Below, one piece after another: positions 2,280-63,948 of a DNA stretch of 64,000 bases. Made by a program: the position numbers and the translations under genes. How positions within the stretch are numbered: the first letter of the stretch is position 1; each line of letters starts with the position of its first letter. Source of the DNA: an uncultured Christensenellaceae bacterium (GTDB taxonomy: Bacteria > Bacillota > Clostridia > Christensenellales > CAG-1252); contig CAYMNK010000004.1 of assembly GCA_964391805.1 (NCBI GenBank), positions 91,986-155,985 on the forward strand. Reading direction: 5' to 3'. Below the pieces are notes generated by a model. It saw only the letters and a program-made list of their open reading frames with translations, made no database searches and had not been told where the DNA came from.

Positions 2280-2354
2280 GCGGGAGTGGCTCAGTGGTAG
2301 AGCGCTGCCTTGCCAAGGCAGATATCGCGGGTCCGAATCCCGTCTCCCGCTCCA
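2280..2354 (+). tRNA. tRNA-Gly (anticodon GCC), CCA encoded
   Basis: Hand-folded cloverleaf: acceptor GCGGGAG/CTCCCGC, anticodon stem CTGCC/GGCAG, loop TTGCCAA. The T-loop is an unusual TCCGAAT. Confidence 0.85.
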
Positions 2355-2360
2355 CTACGT

Positions 2361-2434
2361 GGCGACATCGCCAAGCGGTAAGGCTCGGGTCTGCAAAACC
2401 CTTATCCCCAGTTCGAGTCTGGGTGTCGCCTCCA
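2361..2434 (+). tRNA. tRNA-Cys (anticodon GCA), CCA encoded
   Basis: Acceptor GGCGACA/TGTCGCC, anticodon loop CTGCAAA, T-arm CCCAG-TTCGAGT-CTGGG, discriminator U. Confidence 0.85.
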
Positions 2435-2438
2435 AAAA

Positions 2439-2524
2439 GCCGAAGTGGCGGAATGGCAGACGCAAGGGATTTAAAATCCCTCGTAGGCAACTATGTGCGG
2501 GTTCGAGTCCCGCCTTCGGCACCA
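2439..2524 (+). tRNA. tRNA-Leu (anticodon TAA), class II long variable arm, CCA encoded
   Basis: Acceptor GCCGAAG/CTTCGGC, anticodon stem AGGGA/TCCCT with loop TTTAAAA, long variable arm, T-arm GCGGG-TTCGAGT-CCCGC. Confidence 0.85.
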
Positions 2525-7207: not shown

Positions 7208-7228
7208 TGATTTTTTGATTGATTTTTT

Positions 7229-7605
7229 CGTCCGCAAGATACCAAATTGTTGCACAATTTGATTCTCGCTACGCTCGAATTTCGACTTCGCTCAGTATGA
7301 CGGCGGACGAATTGTTCAATATGATGAGGACGGACGCAAACTCTTGTCTTTATGCGGATTTTAGATTCCGATGCTACGCATCGCCCTACGGGTTCGACTA
7401 CGTGTTTCACACTTCGCTCAGTATGACATTTGATGGTGCAGTGCTATTTAAAGTTTCGCTCAGTATGACATAATAGGCAAAAAAAGTTGGTACATAATAA
7501 AAAGCAAGTGCAATGACTTGCTTTTGGCGGGCGATTATTAATCGCCCCTACATTTTTGCAATATATTATTTACTTTTTTGTCAAAGAAATATGCATTATG
7601 ACATG
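7229..7605 (+). repeat. Mosaic intergenic repeat locus R1 (type-2 unit, type-1 unit, extra motif, double-hairpin module, tail module)
   Basis: Type-2 unit at 7229-7311 is closed by CGTCCGC/GCGGACG. Type-1 unit spans 7354-7440. CAGTATGAC occurs at 7293, 7419 and 7461. The double hairpin at 7499-7548 is shared with 37.78 and 58.0 kb. Confidence 0.85.
7494..7524 (-). terminator. Rho-independent terminator of the nth-obg-yhbY transcription unit, embedded in the repeat module
   Basis: Minus strand: AAAGCAAGT-CATTGC-ACTTGCTTT followed by TTATTAT. It lies about 110 nt downstream of the yhbY stop. Confidence 0.65.
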
Positions 7606-17174: not shown

Positions 17175-18695
17175 TTATAGAATTTCCAACGACTTACCGT
17201 ATGCTGCCTTAAATTGATTCCTACAACTTAATGCATCTTGAATTTCTAACGAGCAGTCACTTTCGGAAACGGTTTGCATAATAACGCTGTCACCCAAAAC
17301 ATCGCAGTTAATTTCGGTAATCAGTCCGCACATACTTCTATCAAAGCTTTCGGCGATCTTAAGGATCACACCGAGTTTATATACGGCGTCGATATCCTCG
17401 GGAGTAAGCATAGGTTTATATCTCGCGAATTCTTCAAACGGTTCGCCCCTCTTATGAGCGGACGCAACACACGCGGCCATAACGATATCCTTTTGGGAAA
17501 TCCCGTATACATTACAGTTCATAATGATATATGCGGAATGATTTGGATGATCGTAATACTTAATAGTTGTACCGGTATCGTGCAAAACGGATGCCACTCT
17601 CAAAACCTTGAAATATTGTCTGGGAAGTTTATGTATAACCTTCAATTGTTTAAATAACTGCATCGAAAGTTCGGCAACATGCTTAGCATGCGTTTCATTC
17701 GCATTAAAATATCTAATCAAGGTCTGTAAACTATAGCCCAAAACATCGCTGATAGGCTTCTCGTTAACTGAAGGAACGGCATACTTGAACATTGCACCCT
17801 CTCTCAATCCGCAAGCCGATATGGTTACCTTTTGGAACTTCGCGCAGTCAAATACTGCCTTAATCGCTGCTAACGCACTCGGGAAGATATCCGCTCTACC
17901 GCTCGACAATCCCTTAATCTTCATCGTTCTATCTAATGGAAGAACCTTAATTGTGTTATAAATAACATTGAACTCTTGAAGCGAAACGGGATAATTATGA
18001 GCTTTATCCAAAGGATAATGCTTCATTCTTCTCGAAATCTTACCTAAATTACGGAAGGAACCGCCTACACCGATGAATTGAATATCGGGATCGACATTAT
18101 TCAACCATTCGATAGGCTCGATGGATTCGTGTATAAATTCCTCGATCTTTTCGGCTTTTTCCTCGGGTTTAAGTCCGCTACCCTTGTAAAAATCGGTAAG
18201 AGTAACCGATCCAAAAGGTAAAGTGGATTGAGCCAAAATATTTTTACGGTTATAATAAACGAACTGAGTCGAACCGCCACCCATATCCATAATGATACCC
18301 TTAGGAATATCCATCGAATTGATAACGCCGGTATATGTAAATTGTCCTTCCTCTTCGGAGGATAAGACTTTCAACTTAATGCAACATGAAACCGCTATCT
18401 CGTCGATAAAACTCCTTTGGTTTTTAGCGCGTCTAACTGCACTGGTGGCATACGCAAGTATCTTTTCAACTCCGTTACTATCGCAAAAACGACGGAACAT
18501 AAGAAGCGTCTTCTTAGTCTGTTCAATTCTGCTCTGGCGAAGGAATCCGTCTATCTCCATATCTTGACCGAGACGAACATTTTCCTTTAATTCATCGAAT
18601 ACAACAAAATAGCCACCGTCATAGACGTTAACCAAAACCAAACGTGCGGTGTTCGACCCTAAGTCAATAATACCTATTTTTTCACATTCTGCCAT
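17175..18695 (-). CDS. ppx: Ppx/GppA-family phosphatase with C-terminal HD-like domain
   Basis: IGIIDLGSNTARLV and DMGGGSTQ actin-fold ATPase motifs. Start placed at ATG 18695, which has a GGAG SD. Confidence 0.85.
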   Translation of the reverse strand: MAECEKIGIIDLGSNTARLVLVNVYDGGYFVVFDELKENVRLGQDMEIDGFLRQSRIEQTKKTLLMFRRFCDSNGVEKILAYATSAVRRAKNQRSFIDEIAVSCCIKLKVLSSEEEGQFTYTGVINSMDIPKGIIMDMGGGSTQFVYYNRKNILAQSTLPFGSVTLTDFYKGSGLKPEEKAEKIEEFIHESIEPIEWLNNVDPDIQFIGVGGSFRNLGKISRRMKHYPLDKAHNYPVSLQEFNVIYNTIKVLPLDRTMKIKGLSSGRADIFPSALAAIKAVFDCAKFQKVTISACGLREGAMFKYAVPSVNEKPISDVLGYSLQTLIRYFNANETHAKHVAELSMQLFKQLKVIHKLPRQYFKVLRVASVLHDTGTTIKYYDHPNHSAYIIMNCNVYGISQKDIVMAACVASAHKRGEPFEEFARYKPMLTPEDIDAVYKLGVILKIAESFDRSMCGLITEINCDVLGDSVIMQTVSESDCSLEIQDALSCRNQFKAAYGKSLEIL

Positions 18696-18962
18696 ATATA
18701 CTCCTAACACTTTATACAAAGTGAATTATAATGAATAGTCAATTTGTTTTAGTTTTACAACACATAGCATCCGTATTATAAAACATCAAATAGATTATAC
18801 CATACTTTTTGGAATTTTTAAACATTTTTTTAAATATTTAATAAAAATATTATTTTTCTCCAAAGAAATGTGTTTATTTCACGGAAAATGTCAAATTAAC
18901 GACTTTTTTAATCAACTATTCGCAAAAAGTTGACATTAACCCTTGCGAATAGTTTGATTCAA

Positions 18963-24514: not shown

Positions 24515-24680
24515 AAAAGTATGCATTATTATATAATTTTTTTTCTGCGGATTTTAGATACCGACGCTATGCGTCGCCCTTCGGGTTCGACTACAGGACG
24601 GTGTCCTTCCGCTAAGTATGACGGGACGGGAATCAGTATGACATGATTGGGCGCTGACGCTTGCCATGATTGCGATACTT
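24515..24680 (+). repeat. Mosaic intergenic repeat locus R2 (one complete type-1 unit)
   Basis: GATACC, H1 (CGACGC-TAT-GCGTCG), H2 (CCC-TTC-GGG), GTTCGACTAC, H3 (AGGAC-GGT-GTCCT), TCCGCTAAGTATGAC, ...CAGTATGACATGATTGGGCGCTGACGCTTGCC. Confidence 0.85.
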
Positions 24681-26011: not shown

Positions 26012-26267
26012 AAATTTGACCTCCATTTAGGTTATGCGATAGTGATTTAATGATACGCATAAAACATTGAGTATAGTGAAAATTGTATAATTCTACCATT
26101 TCTTTAGCATTTACCATAAATCATTACTTATATTATACACCATATGCTTTGTTAATTCAACCGCATAAACAAAAAATAGTGAAGATCCCCATTGCTTTGT
26201 TAATGTGGATATGGCGATTACTAATCGTCGCTATAAGATTTAAAATATATTATTGTTTGCAATAAAA

Positions 26268-26770
26268 AAGTATGCACACAAACAAACTCTTTCTTGTAAG
26301 GATTTAGATTCCGACGCTATGCGTCGCCCTAACGGGTTCGACTACGGGTTGTCACCCTTCGCTCAGAATGACATTTGATGGAGTCCGCCGTCATACTGAG
26401 CGTAGCGTAAGCGGAGTCGAAATTCGAGTGTAACGAGAATCAAACGGCGAAGGCGTTTGGTATCTTGCGGACGATAAAGAATAGTCAATTGAACGACTTC
26501 CTTTTTTAATGTGGAATAAGATACCGACGCGTTGCGTCGCTGCTACGCAGTTCGACTTCAGGGCGATGCCCTTTCGCTCAGTATGACAGCGGACGAAATT
26601 GGCTCAGTATGACGGCGGATGAAACCGACTTAGTTAGATATATATTTATCCGCAATATTGCGAAGCAATACATCATTTGCCGTAAGGCAAACATCATTCA
26701 TCATTATGCGTAGCATAACATCATTTACAATGAAGGGACGGAACAGTATGACATTGATGGTATCTGCGTA
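26268..26770. repeat. Mosaic intergenic repeat locus R3 (two type-1 units, one inverted type-2 unit, mini-hairpin triplet)
   Basis: Type-1 units at 26299-26383 and 26511-26625. The type-2 unit at 26384-26473 is the reverse complement of 7229-7311. Three hairpin+ACATCATT units span 26657-26725. Confidence 0.85.
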
Positions 26771-31285: not shown

Positions 31286-31700
31286 GCGCTAACGCGAATG
31301 ATGTTATGCTTTGCATAATGATGTTACTTCGTAATGAGGTTTGCCTCTGGCAAATGAGGTTTTGCGTTGCAAAATTGTGGATGCAGATACCGACGAGTTG
31401 CATCGCCCTACGGGTTCGACTACAACATGACATGATATATGTCGATATCGTTCGCAAGATACCAAATTGTTGCACAATTTGATTCTCGTTACGCTCGAAT
31501 TTCGACTACGCTCAGTATGACGGCGAACGAAATTTGCTTGCCTTGAGGTGTATTTAGATTCCGACGCTATGCGTCGCCCTATCGGGTTCGACTACGGGTT
31601 GTCACCCTTCGCTCAGTATGACTATATTGGGCGCTATCGCTTACCTTGATATGGATAAGGCATCTACTAAACGCCCTCATGATGTAATATATTATTTCTT
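31286..31700. repeat. Mosaic intergenic repeat locus R4 (5 mini-hairpins, truncated type-1, type-2, type-1 unit)
   Basis: Hairpins with AATGATGT/ATGAGGT linkers span 31286-31373. The type-2 unit at about 31450-31525 is closed by CGTTCGC/GCGAACG. The type-1 unit at 31545-31650 has a core identical to 26299-26370. Confidence 0.85.
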
Positions 31701-31720
31701 TTATTGCAAAGATGTACCAC

Positions 31721-35982: not shown

Positions 35983-37230
35983 TCAAATTCCCTCTATCGT
36001 AATTGTTCTCTCGGTTTCTGATAAATAGTCGATGTTCACGGTAATGACCTTGGCTCCGTAGTATTCTTGAGCGACAGTCCATTCAATAAGGCATACACTA
36101 TCCGCTAAACCATAATACTCCTCGAATCCGTAATCGATGTCACTTCCCGACGGTAACCTGTACATATCGAAATGATACATTTTAAGTCTACCCGATTCGT
36201 AACTATTCATTAAAGTAAACGTAGGACTTGTAATAGTTTCGCTAATACCCAAACCAAGTGCTATTCCCTTAGAAAAAGTAGTTTTACCCGCACCCAATTC
36301 GCCGTTCAAAAGAATAACCTCTCCGCCCGATAGCCGAGATGCCAATTTGACGCCTAAATTCATAGTTTGTTCTTGAGTACAAGTTACGTATTCCATAGTA
36401 GAATTATACAACGACTCGTCGTTTTTGGCAATAATATTTGAGTTATTTACGTTGTCCTGTGTATTATTGCCCTTCTTTTGGGCGTTAAATCGCTTATTTG
36501 TCGCTTTAATCAACTTAGATAACGGCTTGTATACAAGAAATACCGCTACAGATAATAAAACAGTTTTTATAAGATTAAATAATACCGCCCAATACCATAC
36601 GTCTAAATAAAACGCCATACCGTCAAGCCAAGGTGTATCCATATATACGCCAAGATAGAACGGAAAAGTCAACAAATAATTGATAGGCACCGAAAATGCC
36701 GTTTGAGCAATGACAGCACAAACAAGCATAATGATTACAGCCTTGATTCCCTTATGTTTTTTATAGGCAAACGAAGGAATCAATACATAAGGAAGCATTA
36801 ATAAAATATTGGCAAGTTCGCCCACTCCTACTGTTTGAGAAAAGGTCAAAGCGTGCAATAATTCTTTTAAAACTCCGACTATTATAGCCGACAACGGTCC
36901 CATGGTAAGTCCCGAAATCAATACAAAAACATTGGAAAAGTCAATTTTTAGAAATGGAACAGCAGGAAAAATGGGAAATTCAAATGTAGGTAAATAAAGA
37001 ATATATGCTATTGCCGTAAACAATGCCATATAGGTCAATCTTAACGGTGTAAAATACTTGGTTCTTATAACTTTTTCGTCCGTTTTCTCTTCGATTAAAA
37101 TAGGCTTATCAAAGTCGTTTGGCTCAATCGATTCATTGTTTTGAGAAGCTAACGAAGATTGCATTTGAACATTAGTACCGCTTGTTACATCATTAACAAC
37201 AGTGCTTTCGATATCTTGAATTTGGTCCAT
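35983..37230 (-). CDS. Single ORF fusing a RibU-type ECF S-component (riboflavin transporter) with TsaE
   Basis: Residues about 60-240 are RibU-like (FLKIDFSNV, 5-6 TM helices). The last 137 aa, from an in-frame Met at 36396, are TsaE (LNGELGAGKTTFSKG, SPTF, FDMYR). No stop codon lies between them. Confidence 0.75.
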   Translation of the reverse strand: MDQIQDIESTVVNDVTSGTNVQMQSSLASQNNESIEPNDFDKPILIEEKTDEKVIRTKYFTPLRLTYMALFTAIAYILYLPTFEFPIFPAVPFLKIDFSNVFVLISGLTMGPLSAIIVGVLKELLHALTFSQTVGVGELANILLMLPYVLIPSFAYKKHKGIKAVIIMLVCAVIAQTAFSVPINYLLTFPFYLGVYMDTPWLDGMAFYLDVWYWAVLFNLIKTVLLSVAVFLVYKPLSKLIKATNKRFNAQKKGNNTQDNVNNSNIIAKNDESLYNSTMEYVTCTQEQTMNLGVKLASRLSGGEVILLNGELGAGKTTFSKGIALGLGISETITSPTFTLMNSYESGRLKMYHFDMYRLPSGSDIDYGFEEYYGLADSVCLIEWTVAQEYYGAKVITVNIDYLSETERTITIEGI

Positions 37231-37293: not shown

Positions 37294-37310
37294 ACAAACT
37301 AAAGTAGTTT

Positions 37311-37425
37311 CATTCTTTTCTCATCCGGACTGTTACCGTAGGTACGGGAATTTCACCCGTTCGGGACCGAAGTCTTCGTGGACTATACCACCTGTGGGGA
37401 TTTACACCCCGCCCCAAAGAATAAC
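37311..37425 (-). promoter_or_regulatory. FMN riboswitch (RFN element) aptamer
   Basis: Minus strand: UUCUUUGGGGCGGGGUGUAAAUCCCCACAGGUGGUA...GGGUGAAAUUCCCGUACCUACGGUAACAGUCCGGAUGAGAAAAGAAU. This matches the conserved RFN core. P1 is UUCUUU/AAAGAA. It lies upstream of a RibU-like gene. Confidence 0.9.
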
Positions 37426-37496
37426 TTTATTAATTGAAGTATATCACTAAATATATTTGGTGTCAATAATTAGTGAAGTATTTATTGACTTTTCAT

Positions 37497-38090
37497 TCTT
37501 TAATGGATTTTTGATTCCGATGCCATTGGCATCGCTACTACGCAGTTCGAATACAGACTTCGTCTCACTCAGTATGACATGATTGAACGCTGACGCTTGC
37601 CTTAATATGGATTGTAGATACCGATGCCGATGGTATCGCTGCTACGCAGTTCGACTCCGCTTGCGCTACGCTCAGTATGACGGGACGGAAATTAGTATGA
37701 CGCTCAGTATGACATGATTGAACGATTGCGCTTGCTTTTATGTGGATAATTGATAGATTGTTGACAAAAATAAATCCAAAATAAAAAGCAAGTGCGATGA
37801 CTTGCTTTGGCGGGCGATTACTAATCACTCTTGTTTTTATAATATATTATTAGCGTTTTTTGTAAAATTCTATGTGCTACTTTTGCTTTTTTTACACGGA
37901 ATCAGATACCGATGCCGATGGCATCGCTGCTTCGCAGTTCGACTTCGGGCTTCACCCTTCGCTCAGAATGACAAGATGGCGGGCGATTACTAATCGCTCC
38001 TATTTTTTTGTAATATAATGTCGTATCTTTGTAATATATTATTGTATTTTCTGTAAATTTTATATGCTTTTTATGCTTTTAAATTTAGCA
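37497..38090 (+). repeat. Mosaic intergenic repeat locus R5 (three type-1 units, double-hairpin modules, tail modules)
   Basis: Type-1 cores start at about 37511, 37617 and 37903. CAGTATGAC occurs at 37570, 37673 and 37705. Double hairpin at 37783-37830. GGCGGGCGATTACTAATCGC recurs at 37977. Confidence 0.85.
37783..37808 (-). terminator. Terminator hairpin (repeat-borne) downstream of scpB
   Basis: Minus strand: AAAGCAAGT-CATCGC-ACTTGCTTT followed by TTATTTT. Confidence 0.55.
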
Positions 38091-38102
38091 TTCATTGAAG
38101 AC

Positions 38103-38912
38103 TTAATCGTTTTCGCCTTCTTCGTCGGAAACATCTTCCGATAAATCTTCATCGGCGACATAATCGTCTTCGATATCTTCGTCGGCAGTTACATCGGATA
38201 AATCATCATTGGATATATAATCGTCTTCCAGGTCATCCTCTAATTCACCCGCGCCCATAGATAGGCTGACATCGGATATATCTTCTTCATCGAGTTTGAT
38301 AAAATTCTCATCGATTTCAAGCTTAGCAAAGTCGGAAGGAACTTCTTTAAACAATGACTTCTCTTCACAAGCTTCGGTGATTGCTTTCAACCTATTTTGA
38401 ATCTCTGCCGACTCGGTAAGTTCATAGATATTCTTAAGTTGGAAACGAAGAAGGAATTCTTGAGTTGTGCTATATTCTCTCGGCGTTCCTAAAGTATTAC
38501 GTTTACCCGATACGTAAATCAACTTAGCTGCTTGCAATACGTTGATAGCATAATCACAGTTGACTCCTCTAATTCTTTCGATTTCGCCTTTGGTTACGGG
38601 TTGTTCGTATGCAACAATGGCAAGGGTTTCAAGCAATACGCCGGTCAACTCTTTTTGCTTGTCCTTTAACAAAATATCGCCTACTTGTTCACCGACCTTG
38701 GAATATGTAGATATGCTGAGTAACTCGCCGAAATCATTGAGAACCAGACCGCTGGTACCGTCGTTGGGGTACTTTTGTTTAAGTTGATAAATTGCAAGTT
38801 CCAACTCGCTTGGATCGATATTCGATTTTTCTAAAATAGTATCTCGAGTTACGCCTCTTTTACCTGCTGCGTAAATTACGCCCTCAACTAATATTTGAAC
38901 ATTATTATCCAT
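38103..38912 (-). CDS. scpB: Segregation and condensation protein B with long acidic C-terminal tail
   Basis: ScpB winged-helix region (EAIVYEQPVTKGEIERIRGVN). Follows scpA. Confidence 0.85.
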   Translation of the reverse strand: MDNNVQILVEGVIYAAGKRGVTRDTILEKSNIDPSELELAIYQLKQKYPNDGTSGLVLNDFGELLSISTYSKVGEQVGDILLKDKQKELTGVLLETLAIVAYEQPVTKGEIERIRGVNCDYAINVLQAAKLIYVSGKRNTLGTPREYSTTQEFLLRFQLKNIYELTESAEIQNRLKAITEACEEKSLFKEVPSDFAKLEIDENFIKLDEEDISDVSLSMGAGELEDDLEDDYISNDDLSDVTADEDIEDDYVADEDLSEDVSDEEGEND

Positions 38913-42544: not shown

Positions 42545-42900
42545 GACAAGAATGCAAGCTGTGCTTACGCAATATGTGTCTAACGACACACGATATAGCT
42601 TCGCTACGATATGTGCCTTTGGGCACGCGATATGTTGCTTCGCAAAAGTTGCGGATAAGGATTTTAGATTCCGACACTTTGTGTCGCCCTACGGGTTCGA
42701 CTACAGACTTCGTCTTTCGCTCAGAATGACATTTGATGGTGCACGTTATCGTCCGCAAAATATAAAACTGACTTTTAGTTACCGTCCAAGATACTGCTCG
42801 GCTCTGCCTCGCACTGCTTAGGCAGTTCGACTACAGACTTCGTCTTCCGCTCAGTATGACGGGACGGGAACAAGTATGACGGCGGACGGACGCTGACACG
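42545..42900 (+). repeat. Mosaic intergenic repeat locus R6 (5 mini-hairpins with CGATATG linkers, two type-1 units)
   Basis: Mini-hairpins span 42556-42644. Type-1 cores start at about 42665 and 42790, both with H3 = AGAC-TTC-GTCT. CAGTATGAC at 42852. Confidence 0.85.
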
Positions 42901-55372: not shown

Positions 55373-56147
55373 ATCGCACCTCTTGAATACTTCCTAAGGA
55401 TGGATACCTACTCAACAATACCTTGATTTCAAAGTTCGAACATTGCGCGGGCAAGTTGTCTAAGTCGCTACCGTGAACAGACGATACTATATTTATACCG
55501 CTCCGATATATGCGCTCGCTGACTTTATATTCGTCTTCTCCGAATAATTCATCGGTCACCACTGTTTCGGGGGATAGACTTCTAATAATTCCTTCGTATA
55601 ATGAATCCTTAGATATGCCGGAAAGAACTAAACTATTGCCCAAATCAAGCACTCCCATACCGCACAATTCATGTCTTTCATCTACAACTACTGTCTGGCG
55701 AATATGCGAAATGCGCCTCGCAAGATCCCTCAAAAAGGTGGTTTTTCCAGCATAAGGCTTACTCACAACCAAAATATTGCGATTCAAATACTTGTCGGGA
55801 ATAACAGAGGAACATCCGATTATCTCATGCGGGATTCTAATCACGAGTCCCTGCAAATGCTTTATTACCTTATGACCGCTACCGTTAACAACATAATCAC
55901 CCGCAAGACCTATCCTAACACCGCCTTTATATGTTAGATACCCCTCTTGAGCATATTCTCCAACCGCATACACCGAATCATCGGTTACAAGCCTTAGAAC
56001 ATCTTTCAACAAATCATCGGTCACAATTTTATCGATTACAATCGACCGATTGGCCAACTTATACATAATGTGCCTACCGAGAATAAGCACTATTTCATTG
56101 GCGGATAAAGGAATATCGGGGGATAAAAGCTCAAGCAGTCTATTCAT
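55365..56147 (-). CDS. spoIIIAA: Stage III sporulation protein AA (ATPase)
   Basis: Walker A KPYAGKTTFLRDLAR and Walker B-like VVVDE. First gene of the cluster. Confidence 0.85.
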   Translation of the reverse strand: MNRLLELLSPDIPLSANEIVLILGRHIMYKLANRSIVIDKIVTDDLLKDVLRLVTDDSVYAVGEYAQEGYLTYKGGVRIGLAGDYVVNGSGHKVIKHLQGLVIRIPHEIIGCSSVIPDKYLNRNILVVSKPYAGKTTFLRDLARRISHIRQTVVVDERHELCGMGVLDLGNSLVLSGISKDSLYEGIIRSLSPETVVTDELFGEDEYKVSERIYRSGINIVSSVHGSDLDNLPAQCSNFEIKVLLSRYPSLGSIQEVRYG

Positions 56148-56280
56148 ATTCTTATTGTATGCTTGTACATCTCAATAATGAATGTACCGACTTAATTAGA
56201 GTAAATGCGACGATTTTCCGCATTTAAAAAAGTGGGATTATTTACTATGTGGAATTATGTTTAATCGCACGACGACGAGC

Positions 56281-56330
56281 GATTTCTCAATATGACGGGA
56301 TCAGCATGACAATAAACGGAAGTATGTATA
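56281..56330 (+). repeat. Degenerate relic of the mosaic repeat tail
   Basis: TTCTCAATATGACGGGATCAGCATGACAATAAACGG, compared with CGCTCAGTATGACGGGACGGGAATCAGTATGACATGATTG at 24.6 kb. Confidence 0.45.
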
Positions 56331-56362
56331 ACATAACAAACAATTGCTCTTTTTGAGTAGAA

Positions 56363-56397
56363 AAAAGTATGCACTTCAACTGTGACATACTTTTTTT
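56363..56397. terminator. Bidirectional terminator hairpin downstream of the islet gene
   Basis: AAAAAAGTATG-13 nt-CATACTTTTTTT. Confidence 0.55.
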
Positions 56398-56558
56398 ATT
56401 AAACTATAGAGAATATAAAAATTAATGACATAGAATTAGTCAGTATAATCAAGACAACTTTAAATTACTGTGCCTTTTTATGGGATAACCAAATGTAATC
56501 ATATATAGAATGTAGTTTTGACATATCTTCTACAAATTATTTTGTACGCAACAAAATA

Positions 56559-57443
56559 CTAAATATAGACCTGATGGCCATTATTAATTTCAACTAAAGA
56601 ACTAATCGAGTCACATTCTATTAATTGTACTAATACTGGCAATGAACCACTTTTCGATGATCTCACTACTGACATATATCCAATTATTGAAATACCGTTT
56701 TGTTCAAGATAATTAATTATCGAGTCAATCTCTATGTGATAATCGGCAAACAATTCAGTATCTAAAAGTTTTTCAACTACGAGTTTATGCTTTTGTAAAT
56801 AACTAAGTTTTTCTGTGATTTTATTTTGATACCCGGCTTCTGTATCAAGCATCTCCGTATATTCACTTGCTACATTTATGAAAATACATGGCGAATCTTC
56901 TGATAGTCCTGTCTTAATAGCAAAAGAATAAGTAAGCAATATTTCGTTCCACTTTGATATATAGTCATTTATCTCGCTCAACACTAAGTTATGTTTTAAT
57001 GAAAATAATAGATTTCCATTATCGAACTCACCTTCACCATATAAATTGGTGGCCTCTTCTAACGATTCAGCAGATGTTTGGTTACAGACAAAAGTTTTGT
57101 TAGTAGTATATAAACCATCTAAACCGTTTTGAACAAATCGCCTATTATTATCTATAATACTTTTTTTTCTTTGAAAAACTTTAATACTCTTGGACACATA
57201 TTCAATATTCACAAATTGAGTTACATTTCCTACTATTGTTGTTTTATCTGATAGTTTATCAATCTCAACTAATTCGTTCTTAACTAAATAGTATTCATAA
57301 TCGTAACGCCCAAATCCAATATATTTCGATTTACGAAAATATACTTGAGAACCGCGACCAAACAGCTCAATTAAATATGTAAAGCAAGTTTCAACAGTAT
57401 TTTTATATGTATCATCCTTAAACGGATTAAGAACGATATGCAT
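56559..57443 (-). CDS. Hypothetical protein in an AT-rich islet; the ORF appears N-terminally truncated by a homopolymer frameshift
   Basis: 294-aa ORF with no recognised family. The upstream same-frame codons encode KKRIIRLIATSVISICILICIISST (a signal anchor). They are cut off from GGAGG+ATG at 57526 by an A7 run. Confidence 0.6.
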   Translation of the reverse strand: MHIVLNPFKDDTYKNTVETCFTYLIELFGRGSQVYFRKSKYIGFGRYDYEYYLVKNELVEIDKLSDKTTIVGNVTQFVNIEYVSKSIKVFQRKKSIIDNNRRFVQNGLDGLYTTNKTFVCNQTSAESLEEATNLYGEGEFDNGNLLFSLKHNLVLSEINDYISKWNEILLTYSFAIKTGLSEDSPCIFINVASEYTEMLDTEAGYQNKITEKLSYLQKHKLVVEKLLDTELFADYHIEIDSIINYLEQNGISIIGYMSVVRSSKSGSLPVLVQLIECDSISSLVEINNGHQVYI

Positions 57444-57839
57444 AGTGCTACTTATTATGCATATTAAAATACAGATACTTATTACGCTTGTCGCAATTAA
57501 TCGAATAATTCGCTTTTTTTAGCCATAATTATCCTCCATCAATAAACTATTTACTACTCAATGGTTATTTTAATATTTCCCTCCACCGTGCTCTTATAAA
57601 ACCTCACAGCAATCTTATATTTCTTTCCATTCAGTAAATTAATCCTATCCTTATAGTTTCCCTTAAATAAAAATCGTTTTTACTACTCTCGTTAATATTA
57701 TACCACATAATAAAAGAATTCTCACTACACGTTTTATACATTTCTAAAATCTTAAATAAAGTTTAATATTACATTTTAATAATAAAATGAGATTATTTAC
57801 GATGCTCAATTATGTATAAAAGAAAGAAAGTTTAGTATG

Positions 57840-58125
57840 ATGCTGATAAGACGCTGACGCTTACTTTGATTAAGGATTAAGATACCGACGCATTGCGTCG
57901 CCCTATCGGGTTCGACTTCGCTTACGCTCAGTATGACATGATTAGACGCTAATGCTTACATTGATATGGATGATTGATAGACTGATGACAAGTTTAATGC
58001 AAAATAAAAAGCAAGTGCGAGGACTTGTTTTGGCGGGAGATTACTAATCTCCCCTACACATTTGTTATATATTGTTATCGTCGCTTGTGAAAGGTTATGC
58101 ATTATGACATGCTTTTTTTATGCGG
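57840..58125 (+). repeat. Mosaic intergenic repeat locus R8 (single near-full-length composite copy)
   Basis: Tail fragment, type-1 core (57885-57937), tail, double hairpin (57998-58050), then a tail module ending in TATGCATTATGACATG. Confidence 0.85.
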
Positions 58126-63720: not shown

Positions 63721-63948
63721 GGTATGTGCTTTTTTACACTTTTTTACAAGGATTTTAGATACTGCAAGGCAAGCCTTGCACTGCTTCGCAGTTCGACTCC
63801 AGGGCAATACCCTTTCGCTCATTATGACAAGATGGGGCGCTATCGCTTACCCTAATTTGGATAAGGGGATTACTAATCGTCCCTATTTCTTGTAATATAT
63901 TATTAGTACTTTTGTAAATAGTATGCGACTTTATGATGTTTTTCGTGG
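63721..63948 (+). repeat. Mosaic intergenic repeat locus R9 (one type-1 unit with divergent H1, tail and tail module)
   Basis: GATTTTAGATAC, H1 (TGCAAGGC-AA-GCCTTGCA), H2 (TGC-TTC-GCA), GTTCGACTCC, H3 (AGGG-CAATA-CCCT), TTCGCTCATTATGAC, ...GGGGATTACTAATCGTCCC...TTGTAATATATTATTAGTA. Confidence 0.8.

Follow-up and report, generated by a model that had tools for sequence, protein, structure and literature searches.

Introduction

Repetitive extragenic palindromes (REPs) and their associated transposases (RAYTs) are among the closest described counterparts of a repeat found in a 64,000-nucleotide (nt) stretch of contig CAYMNK010000004.1 from an uncultured Christensenellaceae bacterium (this whole stretch is hereafter called the window). 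The exemplar, at 24547-24650, belongs to a modular DNA repeat that is present in many intergenic copies in the chromosome of a spore-forming member of the Clostridia. Its units consist of conserved words, up to three hairpins (H1, H2, and H3), and, in closed but not in open units, an outer stem. REPs are high-copy intergenic palindromes with an unpaired tag that occur singly, as doublets or in mosaic arrays and are thought to act as single-stranded DNA (ssDNA) hairpins (PMC6006769, PMC3337134, PMC3733652), and the tag is an unpaired 4-nt GTAG or CGTC at one end of the palindrome (PMC3733652). Like REPs, bacterial interspersed mosaic elements (BIMEs), and REP doublets (REPINs), the window repeat is short, high-copy, and intergenic, with stems that vary while pairing is kept and a copy number that depends on the lineage. 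It differs in that its conserved part is a loop with words of 8-13 nt rather than a 4-nt tag at the foot of a stem, and in that its units, which may be nested, have as many as three additional hairpins. Moreover, 15 of the 16 units in the window are in direct orientation, whereas those of BIMEs and REPINs alternate or are inverted; inverted doublets and pairs exist in other genomes. No RAYT gene (Y1_Tnp domain) was seen among about 55 open reading frames (ORFs) of the window or the ORFs flanked by units in other loci. A GTAG-tag reading was rejected, as the one place that resembles GTAG is TTCGACTNC, whose opposite strand would read GNAG, and all four bases occur at its N. The H1 stem with CGTC is one of many H1 variants. 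The REP/RAYT literature searched described no family for Firmicutes or Clostridia.

The ends of IS200/IS605 insertion sequences form ssDNA hairpins with guide and cleavage words, and insertion is strand-specific via the lagging-strand template (PMC6006769). The strand bias of the open units is comparable to the strand specificity of these elements, which include miniature derivatives called palindrome-associated transposable elements (PATEs), but the window repeat has no adjacent tnpA or tnpB, no distinct left and right hairpins, and no recognized target tetranucleotide. Integron attC sites carry short inverted boxes around a variable, covarying stem, are folded as a single strand with a strand bias, and lie at cassette boundaries. 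The window repeat shares with attC the conserved short words, the covarying stem, the strand bias, and the location at boundaries of gene blocks. However, its units end in AGAT-N(1-3) ... N'(1-3)-ATGAC, with the R''/R' boxes RYYYAAC ... GTTRRRY absent, no integrase (intI) was seen in the window, units adjoin without an intervening gene, and what lies between arrays is entire operons, each with promoters of its own. BOX elements of Streptococcus pneumoniae are modular boxA-boxB-boxC intergenic repeats with stable predicted folds and a variable number of modules; they resemble the window repeat in being modular, intergenic, and hosted by a low-GC Gram-positive organism, but show no sequence similarity and are confined to one genus, whereas the core of the window repeat occurs in several phyla. 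The nick-site hairpins of rolling-circle replicons (Rep/HUH origins) likewise combine an invariant loop with a covarying stem, yet occur once per replicon beside a rep gene, whereas the window repeat has hundreds of chromosomal copies and no rep gene.

The window repeat is thus of a known kind (REP/BIME- or miniature inverted-repeat transposable element (MITE)-like structured repeats), but differs in having a loop that does not vary, fixed points at which it expands, units nested in one another, and a core shared across phyla. Here, we show that the repeat family is genuine: it is modular and intergenic, its helices covary, it has expanded in particular lineages, and it is found at the junctions of insertions and deletions (indels). 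With moderate confidence, we favor a reading in which it is a REP/BIME-like repeat that works as folded ssDNA and is read by a putative enzyme.

The hairpins of the repeat covary between copies

A covariance model was built from 56 copies of several genomes and used to scan the window. It found 16 units, all of them intergenic, as expected of extragenic, high-copy short palindromes of the REP/BIME type. The unit at 26384-26474 is on the - strand and the other 15 are on the + strand. Arrays with accessory modules occupy about 4% of the window as calculated from their coordinates, and the constant words are over-represented, with 17 matches for one (2.7 expected) and 19 for the other (0.68 expected).

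The original prediction listed stem variants that preserve pairing, and a reading of the eight spacers with repeats showed all of them to be present in the window. H1 is CGACGC/GCGTCG at 24562, 26312, and 31562, CGATGC/GCATCG at 7369, CGATGCC/GGCATCG at 37518 and 37910, CGACAC/GTGTCG at 42672, and TGCAAGGC/GCCTTGCA at 63763. H2 alternates between CCC-TAC-GGG and (C)TGC-TAC-GCA(G), and H3 occurs as GTGT/ACAC, AGGAC/GTCCT, GGGT/ACCC, AGGGC/GCCCT, AGAC/GTCT, or AGGG/CCCT. The covariation reported for the closing stem of type-2 units, CGTCCGC/GCGGACG (7229/7304) versus CGTTCGC/GCGAACG (31449/31524), was also found and forms part of a wider outer-stem feature. The possibility that these variants represent a few clonal subfamilies was examined and did not apply, since H1, H2, and H3 variants occur in all combinations (in the window, GACGC with CCC, GACGC with CTGC, GATGC with CCC, and GATGCC with CTGC) and the units are mosaics.

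The proposed pairs were further evaluated in alignments. When the 56 copies were aligned by MAFFT with no structural information and 17 proposed pairs were scored, 97.2% of cells could pair, compared with 82.4% in shuffles and at most 43% when the partners were slid, and double changes were found at 14 of the 17 pairs (147 cells). RNAalifold, unaided, recovered H1 and H2, and each of the nine pairs that it predicted showed compensatory changes. In a larger alignment of 150 copies, which is biased towards the covariance model used to make it, 97.6% of cells pair, with 601 double-change cells and 44 pair types beyond the first. Furthermore, a structure-blind mutual-information scan with average-product correction placed proposed pairs at ranks 1-7 and at 11 of the top 15 positions, although one of the columns, 14/77, also correlates with leader type and owes part of its signal to subfamily structure. 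At an orthologous nested doublet compared between species, one compensated G-C to A-T change was accompanied by about four uncompensated stem changes.

These results support the proposal that selection acts on a folded nucleic acid and not on primary sequence alone: the closing helix P0 and H1-H3 covary, the outer stem is varied, hairpins occur at two fixed points only, and a G-C to A-T double change is found at an orthologous locus. Because very different hairpins are tolerated only at two fixed points between invariant words, the arrangement fits a folded single strand rather than a duplex binding site, and there is fair support for the folded single strand as the functional form. Part of the perfect complementarity could stem from templated palindrome correction during replication instead of selection.

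Invariant words enclose hairpins at two fixed points

The universal core of the repeat is a minimal hairpin of about 26-45 nt whose loop reads (T)TCGACTNC...(Y)CGCTC(A), with TCGACTNC and GCTC as invariant words. It is closed by P0, in which AT-N(1-3) after AG pairs with its complement before ATGAC (GATACC with GTATGAC, GATTCY with GAATGAC, and GATCCC with GGATGAC). In minimal units of other lineages, the P0 triplet is free but complementary (TTC/GAA, CCT/AGG, ATT/AAT, GTC/GAC, TCT/AGA, GTT/AAC, and TCC/GGA). Among independent exact-core matches in IMG/VR, the triplet is fully complementary in 36 of 55, versus 1 in 64 by chance, with nine triplet types; a relaxed IMG/VR scan together with the close relative L105 gave 57 units with a complementary triplet of 13 types. 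As the P0 pair is mismatched in 4 of 15 window units, the constraint on P0 looks looser in the window than in minimal units elsewhere.

The exemplar unit (24547-24628, +; open type; 68.6 bits and an E value of 6e-18 with the covariance model) illustrates the full architecture. On the + strand it comprises, as read from the sequence, a leader GCGGATTTTAG (24547-24557), P0 as ATAC/GTAT (24558-24561 and 24616-24619), H1 as CGACGC/GCGTCG (24562-24567 and 24571-24576), H2 as CCC/GGG (24577-24579 and 24583-24585), the word TTCGACTAC (24586-24594), H3 as AGGAC/GTCCT (24595-24599 and 24603-24607), and the word TCCGCTAAGTATGAC (24608-24622). The original prediction treated the words as constant and single-stranded; their constancy held, but CGCTCAGTATGAC is partly paired, its GTAT with the ATAC of AGATACC, a helix (P0) that had been missed. 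The unit is followed by a tail GGGACGGGAATCAGTATGAC (24623-24642, +), composed of the orphan 3' half of a closing stem (GGACGG) and a repetition of the 3' word. This tail recurs after two other units, at 37682-37701 and 42861-42880, and the unit at 42780-42866 also has the matching 5' half of the tail stem (CCGTCC), which makes it closed.

H1-H3 are optional hairpins at two fixed positions of the loop, with H1 and H2 before TTCGACT and H3 after it. Units extracted from the window and the loci of other genomes numbered 153 (149 distinct), and the covariance model found 199. An outer stem of at least 6 bp is present in 50 of the 153, compared with 4.4 expected, with a range of 6-11 bp and more than 35 different sequences. 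At 13 loci, the H3 position is occupied by a complete inverted unit whose outer stem serves as H3; in these nested doublets every outer unit belongs to the GATCC type, whereas 12 inner units belong to the GATTCC type and one (L070) to the GATACC type. Other genomes contain palindromic composites about 290 nt long that have half-units at their inverted ends. In some composites (L004, L033, and L074) the half-units form 45-nt inverted ends and the flanks are inverted rather than direct repeats, and no target-site duplication as in MITEs was recognized at the composites.

Several other interpretations of the unit were considered. The pairing of GCGGA with TCCGC predicted for the exemplar leader was rejected, as GCGGA and AAGGA leaders are each found with both TCCGC and TTCGC. 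Insertion of units into pre-existing host hairpins is doubtful, given that outer stems all have a pyrimidine-rich 5' arm ending in CG, whereas the 5' arms of simple H3 hairpins are G-rich. A role as intrinsic terminator was rejected, since no T-run follows the units and terminator-like hairpins are separate modules. A tRNA-like reading, with GGTTCGAnTCC as T-arm and GCTCAG as part of a D-arm, was likewise rejected, because the bases flanking TTCGACT are unpaired and a G stands opposite the variable N; the G run beside TTCGACT pairs back into H2, and ARAGORN found only three true tRNAs in the window.

Pairing and orientation point to DNA rather than RNA

Strong covariation, and a conserved core with stems of variable length at fixed insertion points, are typical of functional RNAs. 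The repeat might therefore be a structured RNA, transcribed either as a small RNA or within mRNAs, in their 3' or intergenic portions, and acting as an mRNA stabilizer, a site for an RNase or another protein, or a self-cleaving ribozyme. Terminator-like hairpins on the + strand follow several window arrays, which would suit such an RNA. So would the nested doublet that four species share at one position downstream of a dnaD/dnaC-like operon (L031, L007, L065, and L066; at 4632-4791 in L066), and the co-orientation with genes of IMG/VR minimal units with perfectly complementary triplets (L106-L185; 27:8, with 35:8 on the G-rich strand). We nevertheless regard this explanation as unlikely for the following reasons.

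First, of 2,293 paired cells, 2,207 were Watson-Crick, 30 were G-T or T-G, 28 were A-C or C-A, and 28 were other mismatches. Wobble pairs thus amount to 1.3% of cells, and their near absence, unlike in typical RNA families, argues against RNA, as does the lack of strand asymmetry. A single G-T pair at 37.63 kb had been taken as favoring a plus-sense RNA or plus-strand ssDNA; because G-T is only as frequent as A-C, this pair carries no strand information and the suggestion is not supported. Second, the orientation of closed units is random (23:23 with respect to genes and 25:26 with respect to GC skew), open units that have a GGAT leader, found in the window and in one metagenome-assembled genome (MAG) of the Christensenellaceae, are antisense to genes (34:3) and lie on the C-rich strand (38:7), nested inverted copies place the words on both strands, and the palindromic composites have half-units as terminal inverted repeats. 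Third, the exemplar folded no better than shuffled sequence (z = 0.35 for + strand RNA, -0.99 for - strand RNA, and -0.71 for DNA). In addition, Rfam 15 at the gathering threshold detected only a flavin mononucleotide (FMN) riboswitch and the three tRNAs in the window and nothing on the repeats, a search of two arrays at E values up to 10 gave only chance-level matches, and no promoter was found for + strand transcription of the window arrays. Taken together, the Watson-Crick-only pairing, the random orientation of closed units, and the nested inverted copies suggest, with weaker support than for the folded form itself, that the folded strand is DNA. Covariation alone was therefore not sufficient to infer RNA; a test of wobble pairs and strand was needed, and the window repeat failed it.

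Repeat arrays lie at junctions of gene-block gain and loss

The window was compared with a relative, L104, whose proteins are 75-99% identical and which is collinear with window positions 17.5-39.2 kb with two exceptions. At both of these large indels, homology between the two genomes ends exactly at arrays. The first is an extra segment of 7.3 kb absent from L104 (24500-31717), which carries serpin and ABC-2 transporter genes and an ORF without a Pfam match, and which is bounded and subdivided by arrays at 24547-24650 (the exemplar), 26200-26740, and 31290-31710; at the corresponding ddl/ABC junction, L104 has 150 nt with a single unit. At the second, an array of three units and accessory modules (37473-38166) stands in place of a four-gene block of L104 and L105 (NadD-HD-RsfS, Fe-ADH, and two unknowns), and L104 has a unit remnant, AGATACCGACG, directly after scpB at this junction. 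Since the more distant L105 has the gene order of L104, the window state is derived.

Copy number is lineage-specific. Over 18 kb, a single unit of L104 compares with about eight of the window. In L105 there are about nine minimal units, and some of them occupy spacers in which the window has none. At the type-2 unit beside ddl, which the relatives L100 and L101 have at the same site as the window (31448-31527, +; closed, with outer stem CGTTCGC/GCGAACG at 31449/31524; 28.2 bits), four H1 base pairs differ between the window and L100; this difference suggests that another copy took the place of the unit, rather than a series of single changes. When all loci were compared with one another in search of empty sites, orthology proved insufficient. 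The genes flanking units are unrelated housekeeping genes with no protein recurring beside units, and a search for an autonomous element or a recurrent protein between inverted units found ordinary genes only.

The junctions bring up a sharper version of the favored reading, in which the repeat is an integron-like or nick-site-like recombination site, a recombinase or HUH nickase moves gene blocks, and the arrays are cassette boundaries rather than selfish passengers. Both large indels are bounded by units in direct orientation, an array divides the 7.3-kb segment into one block with the serpin and another with the transporter, and the single unit and the remnant at the two L104 junctions, as well as a design shared with attC and rolling-circle origins (short conserved boxes or loop, variable stems, and strand bias), would be expected of such a site. 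We consider it quite improbable, however, as no integrase or HUH gene was seen in the window or in unit-adjacent ORFs, the attC boxes are absent, in many arrays several units follow one another without an intervening gene, the comparison covered only two junctions, and repeats may simply build up where insertions are tolerated.

Short-read contigs of the same or close organisms end inside arrays, that of L092 at window position 58002 and those of L095-L100 77-135 nt after ddl. The repeats therefore break short-read assemblies, and spurious ORF calls are to be expected from them. As they mark junctions of gene-content difference, they would also be useful for strain typing and for finding flexible regions. 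The Ppx/GppA protein at one end of the collinear region (17535-18695; ORF 17175-18719) is 99.5% identical to that of L104, compared with 75-94% for neighboring proteins; this identity could reflect a recent exchange or an assembly chimera at a contig end.

The core hairpin occurs in several phyla

One genome per GTDB species was scanned for GTTCGACTNC-N(6-24)-CGCTCAGWATGAC, for which about 10 chance matches were estimated, and at least 91 stretches matched. Among the matches listed, most were gut and rumen Clostridia MAGs (Oscillospiraceae, Christensenellaceae, and "Eubacteriales"), and two, from an archaeon and a Nocardia, look like chance, as they lie inside coding DNA. Minimal units were found in L105 (GATTTC-TCGACTAC-GCTC-GAAATGAC) and in a Chloroflexota MAG (GAGATTC-GTTCGACTCC-GCTGCGCTGC-GCTCAGAATGAC), and similar minimal forms in Planctomycetota, Verrucomicrobia, Abditibacteriales, Balneolaceae, and Bacteroidales. 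The core hairpin is also present in IMG/VR contigs, from which the full three-hairpin pattern is nearly absent (two matches), and no match to a unit was found by BLAST in collections of plasmids and phages. Pseudo-ORFs arise in many phyla from related short repeats (AGAT...ATGAC), and this was partly borne out at six loci (L004, L010, L021, L053, L060, and L079) and in IMG/VR. A literature search by exact words, variants, and pseudo-peptide translations retrieved no description of the repeat, only unrelated primers.

A putative enzyme may read the folded strand

In the mechanism we favor, the element would act as a folded single strand, most likely of DNA, whose invariant words are read in trans by a putative protein, such as a HUH/Y1-type transposase or nickase, or a recombinase. 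This protein would copy or move the element, and only copies whose hairpins still fold would stay competent to spread; pairing would hence be kept while the sequence of the stems drifts. Arrays would accumulate between operons, where they might act as, or mark, sites of gene-block insertion and loss. The involvement of a trans-acting enzyme that reads the words and propagates the element is proposed from the likeness to REP-RAYT systems, IS200/IS605 ends, and attC. If correct, this mechanism would imply a simple recognition code, with an invariant loop, a free stem, and fixed expansion points, in a repeat family abundant in poorly studied gut Clostridia and with minimal forms in several other phyla. 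It would also imply that folded single strands are acted on by some widespread enzyme or process. Another form of the proposal, in which the repeats make up a cross-phylum class of folded ssDNA recombination or nick sites, attC-like without an integron and with the conserved loop TCGACTNC...GCTC in a freely covarying stem, and in which a putative conserved enzyme reads these sites and drives gain and loss of gene blocks in gut Clostridia, seems rather improbable.

Several observations weigh against this mechanism. Among the approximately 55 window ORFs and the unit-adjacent ORFs of 92 loci, no transposase, integrase, or HUH gene was found, and neither an empty site at nucleotide resolution nor a target-site duplication was seen. 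Words of 8-13 nt are kept across genomes of 37%-65% GC in several phyla, which is unusual for REP-type repeats. The strand bias of the IMG/VR minimal units is opposite in sign to that of the open units of the window lineage. Moreover, the persistence of a doublet at one locus in at least four species might reflect a role for the host, and the Watson-Crick-only pattern might also come from templated palindrome correction.

That the repeat is instead a duplex-DNA architectural or protein-binding element, comparable to gyrase or IHF sites at BIMEs and with palindromes kept by templated (quasi-palindrome) mutation or gene conversion between copies rather than by selection on a fold, is the least probable of the explanations considered, for although strictly Watson-Crick pairing with mismatches equal on both strands, mosaic exchange of modules between copies, and the excess of uncompensated over compensated stem changes at the orthologous locus (about 4 to 1) would agree with it, hairpins of 10 to more than 90 nt would split half-sites while the invariant words stay, the free closing triplet is complementary across a loop of 12-100 nt, which local templated correction explains poorly, and two subsets show a strong strand bias.

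Other units, accessory modules, and genes of the window

All but one of the remaining window units lie on the + strand. The first array holds a closed type-2 unit at 7228-7307 (28.4 bits), with outer stem CGTCCGC/GCGGACG (7229/7304), H1 AAATTGT/ACAATTT, and no H3, and an open unit at 7354-7433 (83.5 bits) with H1 CGATGC, H2 CCC, and H3 GTGT. Within the 7.3-kb segment, an open unit at 26297-26378 (86.8 bits) has H1 CGACGC, H2 CCC, and H3 GGGT, the sole minus-strand unit (26384-26474; 36.1 bits) is of the closed type 2 with H1 AAACG/CGTTT, and an open unit at 26510-26593 (76.5 bits) has H1 CGACGC, H2 CTGC/GCAG, and H3 AGGGC. Next to the ddl-side unit described above are a truncated unit (31376-31437; 21.4 bits) that retains H1 and H2 and ends after TTCGACTAC and an open unit at 31547-31628 (79.2 bits). 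The array at the second indel comprises three open units: one at 37503-37584 (62.1 bits) with H1 CGATGCC/GGCATCG, one at 37607-37687 (61.5 bits) with the G-T pair in H1 (CGATGCC/GGTATCG, 37622/37632) and the filler GCTTGCGCTAC in place of H3, and one at 37895-37978 (77.6 bits). Further downstream are an open unit at 42657-42736 (85.1 bits; H1 CGACAC/GTGTCG), the closed unit at 42780-42866 (54.3 bits; outer stem CCGTCC/GGACGG), an open unit without H3 at 57871-57943 (63.1 bits), and an open unit at 63748-63834 (62.1 bits; H1 TGCAAGGC/GCCTTGCA).

Arrays are mosaics of units and other short modules. An accessory module that travels with the units was found at 37785-37870, with further copies at 7500-7590 and 58008-58090 and partial copies at 26200-26260, 31655-31710, 37977-38060, and 63868-63925. 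It consists, in order, of a - strand terminator-like hairpin (AAAGCAAGTCATCGCACTTGCTTTTT), a + strand one (GGGCGATTAnTAATCGCCC and a T-run), and TTGTAATATATTATT...TTGTAAA, which is promoter-like when read on the - strand. The module could encode a very short transcript, or be just another mosaic module. By its appearance, a second small repeat family is also present beside unit arrays, at 31290-31380, 26650-26740, and 42570-42650, as strings of four to five mini-hairpins of differing sequence with a constant spacer ATGATGTT, ATGAGGTT, or ACATCATT.

The window has a GC content of about 38%, and its + strand has a negative GC skew. Almost every gene is encoded on the - strand, and most ORFs are preceded by strong Shine-Dalgarno sequences. 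Pfam searches of the ORFs identified housekeeping and sporulation genes, including spoIIIA, spoIVB, yqfD, ddl, murF, scpAB, obg, and infC, which indicates that the host is a spore-forming member of the Clostridia. Exact or near-exact matches to window proteins were limited to a few Logan assemblies, so the host is an uncultured organism with few traces in public data; for the product of the gene beside the exemplar, no identical protein was on record.

A tRNA Gly-Cys-Leu cluster at 2280-2524 (+) lies on the strand opposite to almost all protein genes. The FMN riboswitch (37309-37425, -; 102 bits) has a near-consensus promoter, TTGACA-17-TATACT, at 37466-37438 (-), and the ORF downstream of it (35983-37230, -) encodes an energy-coupling factor (ECF)-type substrate component (RibU-like) fused to TsaE, which are two separate genes in L105. 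The lowest GC content of the window (30.5%) is found at 56000-58000, a part that may be acquired DNA; an ORF in it without a Pfam match (56559-57443) directly adjoins the array at 57844-58075.

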